Shown here one piece after another: positions 11,971 to 15,620 of a stretch of DNA of 64,000 nt. The notes beneath the pieces are model-generated. The model had not been told where the DNA came from. It did not search any database and saw only the letters and a list, made by a program, of their open reading frames with translations. Position 1 is the first letter of the stretch. The number at the start of each line of letters is the position of its first letter. The position numbers and the translations under genes were made by a program. Source of the stretch: Candidatus Bathyarchaeota archaeon (GTDB lineage Archaea > Thermoproteota > Bathyarchaeia > 40CM-2-53-6). The stretch lies in contig VBBP01000044.1 of NCBI GenBank assembly GCA_005884195.1, forward strand, positions 27,151 to 91,150. The letters run 5' to 3'.

Positions 11971-12286
11971 GTCGTCGAACTCGAATTGGGGCCTGAACGC
12001 CTAGGCATCAAGTGTGAATCTACCCACATTTTTGACAAGAAAGATTGCCTCGCCAAATGGCTCGCAACTATACCGGAAAGCAAGGCTCAGTAATATCACT
12101 ACCCGAATACATGGGTTCTCTGAACCAGCGGCTTCCAAAGAACGTATTACCAGCATGAACTTCATTCGATTAGAAAACACGGTCAAGTCAAGCGAGTATA
12201 ACGTTAAGGACCGCCATCCCCCTAGTCGAGGGACTTCAAGCAGAGGTTCAGATTTGGCTCCTAGAGAGCGAGAACTCTTGACTGGA

Positions 12287-12469
12287 ATGGGCAACTGCTA
12301 TGCCTCATGCCACGAGGATTTTGAACATACTGTAGAAATGGTCGGCGATGCTCGGGGTTTGACCGTTGAACAGGTAAAGAAGCTGCTGGAGGATATTCGG
12401 GGCAAATACGGAGCTGATGCTGATTACCAGAAGCTTCGTGGTCGATTGCCTAAGGACTTCCCGATCTAG
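12287..12469 (+). CDS. small Cys/His-containing protein (60 aa), first gene of a putative three-gene operon
   Basis: An internal ATG at 12287 gives MGNCYASCHEDFEHTVEMV.... The longer 12014 ORF has a low-complexity N-terminus and is probably not translated. The downstream gene starts 10 nt later. Confidence 0.35.
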   Translation: MGNCYASCHEDFEHTVEMVGDARGLTVEQVKKLLEDIRGKYGADADYQKLRGRLPKDFPI

Positions 12470-12478
12470 AGGTCGATA

Positions 12479-13381
12479 TTGATGACGAAGTGTCCTAGTT
12501 GCGGGGTAGGTTTTCAGAAACACAATGACTTCGATGATCTCGCGGGTCATTTTGTTGCTGAAGCGGGACGGAGCGATGCGGGACATGTGATGTGGCTGAA
12601 CCGGAACATCACCAAGAACAAATCCGATCGAAAGACGCTGTCGAAACTACTGGCTGGATTCTTTGAACTGGAGGGTCGGAGTTTAGAGTCGTGGGTCAAA
12701 CGGCGTTTTATCGAGAAATTCTATGGACAGAGTCCGCACCCGTTTGTGGTGGCGTTGCAGCATCCTTCACGTGCTGTATTACTCGGCTATGTTGTTGAGC
12801 ACCAGCATTTCCTCCGTCAGTGGGTCCGGTCCTGCGCCTTCATCATGGCCCGGGCGGGCGAGTTGGAGGTGGTCTGGTATGAGGCGGATAATATCTTCAC
12901 GGAGATGGTTGGTGAACCTAGTAAGCCCAGCCATTATGAGTTGTTACTTAGGATGGGTGAGAGTCTCGGGCTGGATCGGAAGAAAGTCAAGCGGACACCT
13001 CCCTTGCCTGACACACAGGAAGCGATTCGGGTCTGGGACGGCATCTGTCAGGATGACCACTGGACAGAAGCGATGGCAGCGATGCACGGGCTGGAACTGA
13101 TAGCGAACCGAAAATTGAAGGCTGAGGGTGCGAGCATCGGATATTTTGACCCGGTGATCTTGAAGAACAGGGAAATATCGAAAGAAGCGAAAGCCTTCCT
13201 GCGGGAAGGGTACGAAGCGGATGTGGGGCATTCTGAAGAAGCCCTGGGTCTTGTGGAGAAATATTCCAGAAAATTGGGGAACTTGGATGATGTCCAAGCC
13301 ACGTTTCTTCGATCGATTGACTACTTCGACCGGTACTTGATGGCGCGCTTGGAGAGGAGTAGACAGTTTGAAAGTAGCTGA
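12479..13381 (+). CDS. heme-oxygenase-like fold redox enzyme (Haem_oxygenas_2 / CADD / PqqC / TenA superfamily) with N-terminal CxxC zinc-ribbon
   Basis: N-terminal MMTKCPSCGVGF...H...H. The core has YVVEHQHFLRQWVRSCAFIMARAG, SHYELLLRMGESLGLD and AMHGLELIANRKLKAEG...ISKEAKAFLREGYEADVGHSEEAL, which matches the helical iron-containing redox enzyme family (Y..hQYHF / H.eL..fa..LG / EE..H pattern). Confidence 0.55.
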   Translation: MMTKCPSCGVGFQKHNDFDDLAGHFVAEAGRSDAGHVMWLNRNITKNKSDRKTLSKLLAGFFELEGRSLESWVKRRFIEKFYGQSPHPFVVALQHPSRAVLLGYVVEHQHFLRQWVRSCAFIMARAGELEVVWYEADNIFTEMVGEPSKPSHYELLLRMGESLGLDRKKVKRTPPLPDTQEAIRVWDGICQDDHWTEAMAAMHGLELIANRKLKAEGASIGYFDPVILKNREISKEAKAFLREGYEADVGHSEEALGLVEKYSRKLGNLDDVQATFLRSIDYFDRYLMARLERSRQFESS

Positions 13382-13664
13382 GAAAGGCTGCGCAATCTGC
13401 CAGGCAACGTGGGGCCACTACTGGGAAGAAATCGAGGGACAACGCATGTTCTTCTGTTGCGATATCTGCGCGGTCGAATTCAAGAACATGATCAATGAGG
13501 TGAAGAAAAAAACAGGATGGAAAACCGTAGATGAGATCAAGATGACGGGTAACTATCGAGGACGCGAATGCACAGCATTGCATGGAGGTAAAAAATACAA
13601 TTTCTCAATCCGGTTTGACTCGAAGGGCGGAATAGACGCTTTCAGTGAACGTCAAGATCTCTAG
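13368..13664 (+). CDS. Ta0938-like Cys-rich zinc-binding protein
   Basis: 98 aa. CAICQATWGHYWEEIEGQRMFFCCDICAVEFKNM (CxxC...CCDxC) resembles the Ta0938 family zinc-binding fold first described in Thermoplasma. Overlaps the upstream gene stop by 14 nt, which suggests coupling. Confidence 0.5.
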   Translation: MKVAEKGCAICQATWGHYWEEIEGQRMFFCCDICAVEFKNMINEVKKKTGWKTVDEIKMTGNYRGRECTALHGGKKYNFSIRFDSKGGIDAFSERQDL

Positions 13665-13876
13665 CCCTTCCAAATGCCTATTGCTAGGCCGACTAGGAAG
13701 GCTGCGGAGGTTATCGGTAGGATGGTTGCTAGACCGGAGGCCTGGCTAGCGATAGTGGGGAATTGCGAGGCGACTCTGTAGATTGTTGTCTTATTGTTGT
13801 CGCTCAGCGTGAGGTTGATGTAGCCTGTTGCGACCAGAAGGCCGACGAGGGATACTATGGCGAGTCCGAGCTTCAC
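13661..13876 (-). CDS. small membrane protein (two TM helices). The true start is probably upstream.
   Basis: GTG start at 13876. The in-frame upstream 38 codons (to the stop at 13991-13993) encode another hydrophobic helix (SGLVVSALIVLAIGFLVGVVL) but contain no ATG/GTG/TTG. Confidence 0.4.
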   Translation of the reverse strand: MKLGLAIVSLVGLLVATGYINLTLSDNNKTTIYRVASQFPTIASQASGLATILPITSAAFLVGLAIGIWKG

Positions 13877-14064: not shown

Positions 14065-14748
14065 CTACAGCTTGGCTAGCGAGTGGAAACCTAGTGTTCC
14101 GAGGTGCTTGTCGTAGAATGTGAAAATAATACTGATCCCATGCGCCCTACGCAGGGTTGCAATCGTGCAGTCCGTGAAGCTGAATTCCACATCGCTCCTC
14201 TGCTTGTAAGGGTTCCAAAACCGCTCCAACGTTTCCCCGTCGAGCTTCCGGAGAACGATAGTCTTGGAAGAGAAGATATCAGTTCCCAGTTGAACCGAGA
14301 GTTTGTGATTCCTTGTTCGGGCTCGACAATTAGTAACCGCCTCATCCAACACGTAATCTGAAGTGTACAGCTTGGTGTATTCCGTATTGTTCTCGGAGAT
14401 TCTCTCGAAGGGTTCGAGCACGGTCAGATGGTCGCTATCTCTTGTTGCAATAGGCCACAATTGGTCCCGTGTCGAGCAAGAGCTTCCACGACTACTTGCC
14501 ATACAAAATCTCGTCAACTTTCTCTCGAAGCCCTTTCTGCACCCTTTCCCCAGTCCTGAGCCTTGCGCCGACCGAGCGCAAGTGTCAAAAATCGGGTCCT
14601 TCGGATCAATGCCGGACTCCTCGTAGGTCCAGCGGAGAGCAGTCTCACGCAGTGCCTCCTTGATCGTGAGACCCTTCTTCTCCGCTACCCTGACCAAGGC
14701 TCGATACTCTTCAAGGCCCAGCTCGGTTCGGGCTACTTTCCGAGGCAT
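14065..14748 (-). CDS. RHH-antitoxin-like N-terminus fused to a PIN (VapC-like) nuclease domain in a single ORF
   Basis: N-terminal MPRKVARTELGLEEYRALVRVAEKKGLTIKEALRE... is a ribbon-helix-helix/CopG-like segment. C-terminal ...VLDEAVTNCRAR...SFTDCTIATLRRAHGISIIFTFYDKHL matches the PIN C-terminal motifs (D..IAAtA....lvT.D). The middle about 40 aa is low-complexity, so either a genuine fusion or a VapBC pair joined by loss of the antitoxin stop. Confidence 0.45.
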   Translation of the reverse strand: MPRKVARTELGLEEYRALVRVAEKKGLTIKEALRETALRWTYEESGIDPKDPIFDTCARSAQGSGLGKGCRKGFERKLTRFCMASSRGSSCSTRDQLWPIATRDSDHLTVLEPFERISENNTEYTKLYTSDYVLDEAVTNCRARTRNHKLSVQLGTDIFSSKTIVLRKLDGETLERFWNPYKQRSDVEFSFTDCTIATLRRAHGISIIFTFYDKHLGTLGFHSLAKL

Positions 14749-15010: not shown

Positions 15011-15238
15011 ATGACAGAGGTCGTCGTGACTAGAAAGGGACAGACCACAATCCCTGTGGATATGCGACGGAAGTACAAGATTGAGGAAGGGTCCCGACTT
15101 GAGGCTATTGACACCGGTAGCGGTATTCTGCTGAAGCCGGAATTGACAACGGCTGACCTTGCGGGTTCTGGGAAGAAACACGCGAGCGTCTCGGAGATGA
15201 AACGTCTGCTGGACCGGATGCGAGCAGAGGATGCCTAG
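15011..15238 (+). CDS. vapB: AbrB/MazE/SpoVT-type antitoxin (VapB-like)
   Basis: 75 aa. N-terminal VVTRKGQTTIPVDMRRKYKIEEGSRL is the swapped-hairpin AbrB/MazE DNA-binding fold. Overlaps the downstream PIN gene by 8 nt. Confidence 0.7.
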   Translation: MTEVVVTRKGQTTIPVDMRRKYKIEEGSRLEAIDTGSGILLKPELTTADLAGSGKKHASVSEMKRLLDRMRAEDA

Positions 15239-15620
15239 GGCAACCTACGACACACGTTTCTTCGTTGAACACTATTACTCTGGCGACGCCCAGGTTACCG
15301 GCTCAACCACTAACGAGATTCGAAGGGAAAAGGAAAAGGCCATCTCCTCAATAGTTCTGCACGAGGTTTACAGGCTGACTCTTCAGAAGGACGGGCGGCA
15401 GACTGCTCGCCTCCGCACCGGGCTCCTGAGAAAAGATTTCAAGGTCATTCCAGTTGACGAGGAATTAGCTGTCACCTCTGCGGAGCTAAGACAAGAGTAC
15501 CACATTTCAATAGCCGACAGTATCATCGCAGCCACAGCTTCGTCCCTACGGGCAGTCTGCGTCACCGACGACCCCCATATCCGAGGCATCCGAGAAGTCA
15601 AGACCCGATGGATAACCTGA
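15231..15620 (+). CDS. vapC: PIN-domain ribonuclease toxin (VapC)
   Basis: 129 aa. N-terminal YDTRFFVEH (first Asp), HISIADSIIAATA and VTDD motifs of PIN domains. Immediately follows the AbrB-like antitoxin. Confidence 0.75.
   Translation: MPRATYDTRFFVEHYYSGDAQVTGSTTNEIRREKEKAISSIVLHEVYRLTLQKDGRQTARLRTGLLRKDFKVIPVDEELAVTSAELRQEYHISIADSIIAATASSLRAVCVTDDPHIRGIREVKTRWIT

Follow-up and report, generated by a model that had tools for sequence, protein, structure and literature searches.

What kind of system is formed by three closely packed genes, here named A, B and C, in a stretch of 64,000 nucleotides (nt) from a Candidatus Bathyarchaeota archaeon (GenBank assembly GCA_005884195.1, contig VBBP01000044.1, positions 27,151 to 91,150; the whole stretch is referred to as the window)? 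A preliminary description of this DNA, made from the letters alone, had placed the genes at positions 12287-13664 of the window and had proposed that they encode a Cys/His mini-protein (A), a redox enzyme of the haem-oxygenase-like (HO-like) fold fused to a zinc ribbon (B) and a small zinc protein resembling Ta0938 (C). All three exist as open reading frames (ORFs), arranged head to tail on the plus strand, as had been described. The reading that we favour, with moderate confidence, is that they encode a stand-alone O2-activating metalloenzyme system, in which B would be the catalyst, C its obligate Cys-rich partner and A a lineage-specific accessory. Four rival explanations were ranked behind one another in the order (i) detoxifier of O2 or H2O2, (ii) divergent synthase of 4-aminobenzoate (pABA), (iii) sensor-regulator and (iv) true PqqC, the synthase of pyrroloquinoline quinone (PQQ), and these are weighed below where the evidence touches them.

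A pattern scan of one archaeal genome per GTDB species revealed 125 loci with a relative of B, 80 of which were kept and analysed. They belong to soil Bathyarchaeia, Nitrososphaerales, many Thermoplasmata and two metagenome-assembled genomes (MAGs) of Asgard archaea (one Heimdall and one Thor), and the closest of them is 95% identical to the window, which marks the window as a contig of soil Bathyarchaeia. Gene C directly follows B in every locus (80/80, or 84/84 when further loci outside the window's own source are included), while A lies ahead of B, with gene order and orientation unchanged, in 77 of the 80. Two of the three loci without A are cut by a contig edge and one, L080 (CP009479.1, 'Uncultured archaeon clone ASS_A1, complete genome'), truly lacks the gene; its B is the most divergent of the set (52% identity), and an unrelated Cys-containing ORF of 91 amino acids (aa) is found upstream of it (L080:3606-3881). 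The spacing of the genes is conserved as well: the most frequent A-B spacers measure 11-23 nt, an overlap of 4-17 nt between B and C is present in 70 of 74 loci, and the pairwise-identity matrices of the three proteins correlate with each other (r 0.75-0.81). The triad is thereby kept across Bathyarchaeia, Nitrososphaeria, Thermoplasmata and the two Asgard MAGs. A complete A-B-C module was also identified in a MAG labelled 'bacterium' (L007, JAJPJY010000158.1), with a B protein 71% identical to that of the window; the label is probably that of a misassigned archaeal bin.

A search with SSO2700 of Saccharolobus solfataricus placed the B family throughout the cultured Sulfolobales and, additionally, in Caldivirga and Caldisphaera. 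In four genomes of these groups B and C again overlap by 4-17 nt, and no gene A was found within 3-5 kb of the pair; A is absent from five B-C loci (crenarchaeal and other). Since Sulfolobales, Caldivirga and Caldisphaera have only B-C, this pair is considered the universal core of the module and A a lineage add-on. There is no fourth conserved gene, as no other ORF family was present in more than 10 of the 80 loci within 4 kb, and no second copy of the module was found in the window.

The assignment of B to the HO-like fold, which is also that of the HO-like dimetal oxidases/oxygenases (HDOs; enzymes that activate O2 with Fe/Fe or Mn/Fe), is based on concordant lines of evidence. Firstly, hidden Markov model (HMM) searches returned Pfam families TENA_THI-4 (E 1.2e-35, residues 74-289) and Haem_oxygenas_2 (E 9.6e-14). 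Secondly, the protein aligns end to end, finger included, with the solved structure 4LQX, which is SSO2700 (E 1.3e-92). Thirdly, an AlphaFold prediction, for which 17 homologues were used, is of high confidence (predicted local distance difference test, pLDDT, 93.6). In the comparison table of B, the figures of which carry no column heading, the values are 39.6 for 4LQX, 19.5 for CADD (Fe/Mn 4-aminobenzoate synthase), 17.7-19.5 for TenA homologues, 17.8 for HrmI, 16.7 for both UndA and PqqC, 14.7 for BesC, 13.7 for FlcD, 11.7 for SznF and about 12 for true haem oxygenases. The preliminary description had staked its reading on this fold and on the co-conservation of the genes, and both were found, the HMM matches being significant. 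Its N-terminal CxxC zinc ribbon needs a change of name: the metal motif is present, and its Pfam class is a C2H2 finger (zf-C2H2_9, 63.6 bits against a cutoff of 29, E 1.6e-17), not a four-Cys ribbon. The finger residues C4, C7, H23 and H35 are invariant, with the spacing C-x2-C-x15-H-x11-H.

The B family comprises more than 770 sequence clusters. Its mean pairwise identity amounts to 61% and around 100 residues are very highly conserved across phyla, including a series of invariant residues that are not candidate ligands (PHPF, W114, Y133, N137, Y152, R166, W185, W194 and YFDP). With so many residues conserved across phyla, a specific, constrained substrate is suggested.

Candidate metal ligands were compared by a residue-by-residue HMM alignment of a profile covering the C-terminal half of B with CADD (1rcw), with conservation assessed over 79 sequences; the geometry of the site is deduced from this alignment and from helical periodicity only. 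CADD residues E81, H88, E142, D178 and H181 correspond to E141, H151, E205, D247 and H250 of B, and five of the six ligand positions of CADD are thus predicted to be retained. The sixth, His174 of CADD (the first His of the HxxxDxxH motif), corresponds to an invariant glycine, Gly243. The five putative ligands, G243 and also E242, Y244 and H202 are each conserved in at least 95% of the sequences. H202 is located one helical turn before E205 and E242 adjoins G243; judging from these positions, one or the other probably stands in for the missing histidine.

In HDOs, core helices alpha-1 to alpha-3 carry the metal ligands as 3His/3carboxylate or 3His/4carboxylate sets, and a mononuclear variant lacks two alpha-3 ligands (PMC13108848). 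The candidate ligands of B agree with this rule of core-helix placement, and the pattern as a whole is an exact fit to none of the sets in that review. The bacterial HDOs UndA, BesC, HrmI, SznF, FlcD, AetD and RohS have the full 3His/3carboxylate or 3His/4carboxylate set or are mononuclear without the two alpha-3 ligands (PMC13108848), whereas B lacks just one alpha-3 His and has, in addition, a zinc finger and dedicated small partners. The bacterial natural-product enzymes are encoded in biosynthetic gene clusters, whereas B is archaeal and stands alone.

In databases, B is labelled 'pyrroloquinoline-quinone synthase', 'TenA family transcriptional regulator' or 'thiaminase II/PqqC', and the PqqC label of the gene was used to infer PQQ synthesis in Thaumarchaeota (PMC10640624). 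A genuine PQQ synthase, as both the JGI/KEGG annotation and this literature inference have it, would be consistent with the membership of B in the Pfam TENA/THI-4/PQQC family, with the match of its profile to PqqC structures (E 0.002) and with the link of the gene to abundant PQQ-dehydrogenases (PMC10640624). We nevertheless consider it very improbable on several grounds. In an NCBIfam scan of B with E values up to 1, the CADD model was the sole match, with none to a PqqC or TenA model. In a profile alignment to 1otv/3hlx, residues R50, K60, R80 and H84 of PqqC (Klebsiella numbering), which we take to be those binding the tricarboxylate substrate, correspond to H107, S117, N137 and E141 of B, so that B has other residues where PqqC has the Arg, Lys and His for its substrate. 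The CADD-type metal ligands are predicted to be retained in B, whereas PqqC is not known to contain a metal. Finally, no association with pqqA, pqqB, pqqD or pqqE was observed: only A and C are conserved nearby in the 80 loci, and the 148 flanking genes show no pqq family among their 25 most frequent Pfam matches. Protein A was also considered as a PqqA-like precursor peptide and rejected, as it has no Glu-x3-Tyr motif and is absent where Sulfolobales, Caldivirga and Caldisphaera keep B-C.

As for TenA (thiaminase II), only the umbrella family TENA_THI-4 matches B. TenA possesses a catalytic Cys, and there is no family-wide candidate for it in B because Cys118 is replaced in SSO2700. A further candidate function, that of the missing archaeal deoxyhypusine hydroxylase (an enzyme that would need O2 and iron), was rejected. 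Pyrodictium and Thermoproteus are strict anaerobes. Hypusine is reported from these two genera and Thermoplasmales contain deoxyhypusine only (PMC5178350, PMC6105217), a distribution that is mismatched with that of B.

The nearest enzyme by NCBIfam model is CADD (PabS), in which two sacrificial residues, Lys152 and Tyr27, serve as the amine donor and the ring donor, respectively (PMC11965152). B could accordingly be pictured as an archaeal self-sacrificing pABA synthase of this kind, feeding folate-type cofactors where pabABC is missing, and we regard this as improbable. B scores 28.6 bits against the CADD model TIGR04305, the cutoff of which is 200. Lys152 falls on a position that is variable in B (E215 in the window), the region of Tyr27 lies outside all alignments, and His174 is replaced by the invariant Gly. 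CADD, which like NePabS is a self-sacrificing 4-aminobenzoate synthase of the HDO superfamily, shares 19% identity with B, has no zinc finger and no partner genes, unlike B, and works without partner proteins. No folate genes were seen among the flanking genes. A small chance is also given to the idea that archaea use B-C, with or without A, as a hitherto unrecognised way of making an essential aromatic cofactor or a precursor of one, through radical chemistry of the CADD type at a metal site that has been rewired. The product could be, for example, pABA for folate or sulfopterin-type cofactors without pabABC, or a protein-derived redox cofactor, and the route might possibly consume residues of B or of A (its invariant Tyr47, Cys4 and Cys8). 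Because the respective models are unmatched or score below their cutoffs and key residues are replaced, B is neither a PqqC, nor a TenA, nor a CADD-type pABA synthase; among metal enzymes of the HO-like kind, it forms a branch of its own.

Protein C is a clear member of the Ta0938 family, as had been proposed (PF11494, 130.3 bits against a cutoff of 27, E 3.7e-38), and its residues 5-88 match the solved chain 2fqh_A (E 3.4e-21), the nuclear magnetic resonance structure (PDB 2FQH) of Ta0938 of Thermoplasma acidophilum. It contains five invariant Cys residues (C8, C11, C30, C31 and C34), which include two CxxC-type knuckles, C8xxC11 and C31xxC34. Weak direct matches, below threshold, were obtained for YHS (16 bits, cutoff 30.3) and TRASH_HVO_1752_C (15.7 bits, cutoff 27), and the arrangement C11-x18-C30-x3-C34 resembles the TRASH spacing. 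Tandem YHS proteins with two or three YHS domains (P0391-P0393) match both YHS (E 6e-26) and Ta0938 (E 4e-11, above the Pfam threshold), in adjacent, partly overlapping stretches. Since these proteins match both models, the opening third of the Ta0938 model probably amounts to a YHS/TRASH-type domain, with overlap between the two Pfam families. The Ta0938 family is tiny, with 51 clusters (50% identity) in a set of 1.84 billion representatives, and is essentially confined to this module. Ta0938 and Ta0939 ('PQQC') had been listed together in 2007 as common to Thermoplasmata and Sulfolobus (PMC1852104); here, Ta0938 proves to be the constant partner of an HO-like enzyme, with an N-terminus that is probably related to YHS/TRASH.

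In two fairly distant Thermoplasmata MAGs, protein C is fused via a Pro-rich linker to an Abhydrolase_3 domain (HGGG-type esterase/lipase, E 8e-78; L050:4887-6374 and the C gene region of L071, also protein P0356). The Abhydrolase_3 domains of the two fusions share 51% identity. As a separate neighbour, this family is absent from every other locus, so it offers no general functional clue.

The two knuckles of C, placed beside a helical metal protein, bring to mind rubrerythrin, which combines a carboxylate/His dimetal helical bundle with a Cys4 rubredoxin-like domain. The likeness is an analogy only: rubrerythrin has a ferritin-like four-helix bundle with the Cys4 domain fused to it, whereas the Cys protein of B-C is encoded by a separate gene, and no homology of B-C to rubrerythrin was found. 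The corresponding rival explanation is that B-C is a split rubrerythrin serving in oxidative-stress defence, in which O2 or H2O2 is reduced with electrons from a Cys4 iron site in C and no organic substrate is involved. Besides the knuckles, it would account for a module that stands alone, with no pathway neighbours, and for hosts that span aerobes, microaerophiles and some anaerobes. Redox proteins are also encoded occasionally near B-C, namely AhpC in Caldisphaera, and thioredoxin and rhodanese in Caldivirga. These neighbours are anecdotal, however, as none is among the 25 commonest Pfam families of the 148 neighbours, and the unusually many invariant non-ligand residues of B suggest a specific substrate pocket. 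Moreover, no peroxidase HDO is found among the subtypes covered by the review PMC13108848. All in all, we hold this explanation to be unlikely, although it heads the list of rivals.

The description of protein A required corrections. Its start had been placed at the ATG at 12287, while the true start is a TTG at 12254, 33 nt further upstream, which makes the protein 11 residues longer. In an upstream DNA alignment of 78 sequences, the protein sequence encoded by the 11 codons before the ATG is conserved, while the codons themselves vary synonymously. The N-terminal consensus of these sequences reads x-[T/D/N]-P-[R/K]-E-R-E-L-L-T-G-M-G-N-C, Glu-5 and Leu-4 of the extension are present in 78/78, and GTG, TTG or ATG is found at -33 in 73/78. 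Automatic calls of the gene vary (60, 63, 71 or 151 aa). In near-identical public contigs it is called as 151 aa from a GTG at 12014 (12014-12469 in the window), an over-extension, since conservation begins only at 12254. Bathyarchaeia relatives carry GGGGT or GAGGT at the position equivalent to that of the GAGGT ahead of A in the window. In many Thermoplasmata loci a TATA-like element is located around 25-30 nt before the upstream start instead, which suggests that transcripts of these loci are leaderless.

In the 60-aa numbering, which is used throughout for this protein, the invariant residues of A are N3, C4, C8, F12, T15, M18, V19, R23, Y47, L50, R51, P55 and F58. From the motif CxxxCHEDFEH of the preliminary description, the CxxxC Cys pair, Phe12 and, mostly, Glu13 are conserved, while His9 and His14 vary. 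It follows that A is not a Cys/His mini-protein but a CxxxC helical protein with variable histidines. Its mean pairwise identity is 57%, and all 363 relatives that could be detected carry the name 'hypothetical', none of them having a Pfam domain. No significant Pfam or NCBIfam match was obtained, only a weak one to Phage-MuB_C (E 0.025). An AlphaFold2 model shows four short helices (pLDDT 74). A PDB sequence search also returned TALE-repeat matches (E down to 3e-11, '0 stretches'), which were rejected as summed weak matches to a long 'LTPEQV...' array and not homology.

A small first gene that is dispensable in some lineages, as A is, may raise the question of regulation. According to this explanation, the module would be a redox-, oxygen- or metal-sensing transcription regulator, with the B finger and/or a three-helix A binding DNA and the metal site acting as the sensor. 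The zinc finger on B, the weak Phage-MuB_C match of A and the top (non-significant) Foldseek matches of the A model, which are helix-turn-helix domains (homeodomain, sigma region 4), could be read in this way, as could the database label 'TenA family transcriptional regulator'. The label, however, goes back to TenA of Bacillus, a protein that proved to be a thiaminase rather than a regulator, and A has no significant fold or HMM match. The spacing of the B finger is not the classical DNA-binding one, the approximately 100 conserved residues lining the helical bundle are typical of an enzyme, and 50-60% identity across phyla is rare for regulators. A regulator is therefore quite improbable.

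Returning to the O2-activating system, we picture its action as follows. B would form a seven-helix HO-like bundle holding one or two Fe or Mn ions via E141, H151, E205, D247 and H250, and would use O2 to oxidise a probably small-molecule substrate in the strongly conserved pocket. Its N-terminal C2H2 finger may serve as a structural or docking zinc module. As genes B and C overlap, C would be produced in a 1:1 ratio with B, and its translational coupling, together with the fact that it is found essentially nowhere else, points to an obligate partner that would enter a complex with B. The ribbon of C would hold a metal and could either deliver it to B, by analogy with YHS/TRASH, or relay electrons like rubredoxin through the pair of CxxC-type knuckles. 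A, an addition seen in Bathyarchaeia, Nitrososphaeria, Thermoplasmata and Asgard archaea, might join this complex as a third subunit, or act as an adaptor or a redox/metal-responsive modulator.

Several observations weigh against this scheme. The presence of Gly243 in place of the canonical His means that the site may be mononuclear, have another wiring or lack catalytic activity. Genome context provides no hint of a substrate or pathway across the 80 loci, where the 148 immediate neighbours matched 117 Pfam families, the commonest, Glyoxalase, with 8. Some hosts, such as Caldisphaera and Conexivisphaerales, are described as anaerobes, which fits poorly with an obligate dependence on O2. Lastly, the A model has no significant Foldseek neighbour (best E 2.2), and the role given to A is a guess.

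In Sulfolobus acidocaldarius (L084, CP046615.1, 78951-89865), B-C is located amid genes for two Amidohydro_2 proteins, a LigB-type extradiol dioxygenase, a flavin reductase, an IclR-type regulator and a molybdenum hydroxylase. These genes give the locus the look of a neighbourhood for aromatic catabolism; such surroundings were not seen in S. solfataricus or elsewhere.

The features of the module in the window are collected in Table 1. GAGGT or GGAG motifs precede all three starts by 6-8 nt. The 14-nt overlap of B and C that had been described was borne out, C starting at 13368 and B ending at 13381, whereas the 10-nt gap given between A and B was not: the stop codon of A ends at 12469, which leaves 12 nt to the ATG of B, or 9 nt to an alternative TTG start at 12479, located 3 nt before the ATG.

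Table 1. Coordinates of the A-B-C module and its start signals in the window.
Feature	Position	Strand	Description
Gene A	12254..12469	+	71 aa, TTG start; N-terminal PRERELLTG extension conserved, CxxxC pair invariant
Gene B	12482..13381	+	299 aa, ATG start; C2H2 zinc finger fused to haem-oxygenase-like (TENA/THI-4/PQQC superfamily) domain
Zinc-finger domain of B	12482..12664	+	Residues 1-61; Pfam zf-C2H2_9 (PF16293)
Haem-oxygenase-like helical domain of B	12701..13348	+	Residues 74-289; Pfam TENA_THI-4
Gene C	13368..13664	+	98 aa, TTG start; Ta0938 family, N-terminal YHS/TRASH-like zinc ribbon and family-specific C-terminal domain
GAGGT Shine-Dalgarno-like motif	12243..12247	+	6 nt 5' of the corrected gene A start; direct sequence reading
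GAGGT Shine-Dalgarno-like motif	12469..12473	+	8 nt 5' of the gene B ATG; shares the last base of the A stop codon
GGAGAGGAG Shine-Dalgarno-like motif	13351..13359	+	Within the 3' end of gene B, 8 nt 5' of the gene C TTG

Downstream of the module, three further features were noted. These are: (i) an ORF of 71 aa with hydrophobic ends (13661-13876, minus strand), convergent with gene C and overlapping its stop codon by 4 nt, which possibly encodes a small membrane protein, has no Pfam match and is not called as a gene on near-identical public contigs; (ii) an ORF of 227 aa (14065-14748, minus strand) without a Pfam match, a shorter call of which on a near-identical contig has a weak PIN match; and (iii) a pair of genes for a MazE/AbrB-type antitoxin (E 6e-9) and a PIN-domain toxin (E 8e-15), overlapping by 8 nt (15011-15620), just 3' of the module.

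The preliminary description had called the three-gene cassette an undescribed system, and our reading of the literature agrees. No functional study was found in the open-access literature on Ta0938, Ta0939, 4LQX, SSO2700 or archaeal HDOs; the components of the module appear there only in the phyletic list of 2007 (PMC1852104) and in one mention of 'pqqC' (PMC10640624). The closest solved relative of B, SSO2700, was released by structural genomics in 2013 as a 'TENA/THI-4 domain-containing protein' (PDB 4LQX), a structure without an attached function or paper, and differs from the window in that gene A is absent upstream in Sulfolobales. To our knowledge, no characterised HDO has dedicated small partner proteins. 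A review of 2026 describes an HDO superfamily that is mapped, to date, in bacteria and chiefly within natural-product gene clusters, and the words archaea, zinc and Sulfolobus do not occur in its text (PMC13108848).

The module thus represents a large, very strongly conserved archaeal HDO-like branch that is set apart by its ligand pattern, by the zinc finger fused to it and by one or two small partners. The PQQ-synthase label of B, and with it the PQQ synthesis inferred in Thaumarchaeota, is unsupported by the present evidence. The module is present in the genetically tractable hosts Sulfolobus acidocaldarius, Saccharolobus solfataricus and Metallosphaera sedula, and since solved structures also exist for two of its three components (4LQX and 2FQH), its function is directly testable.

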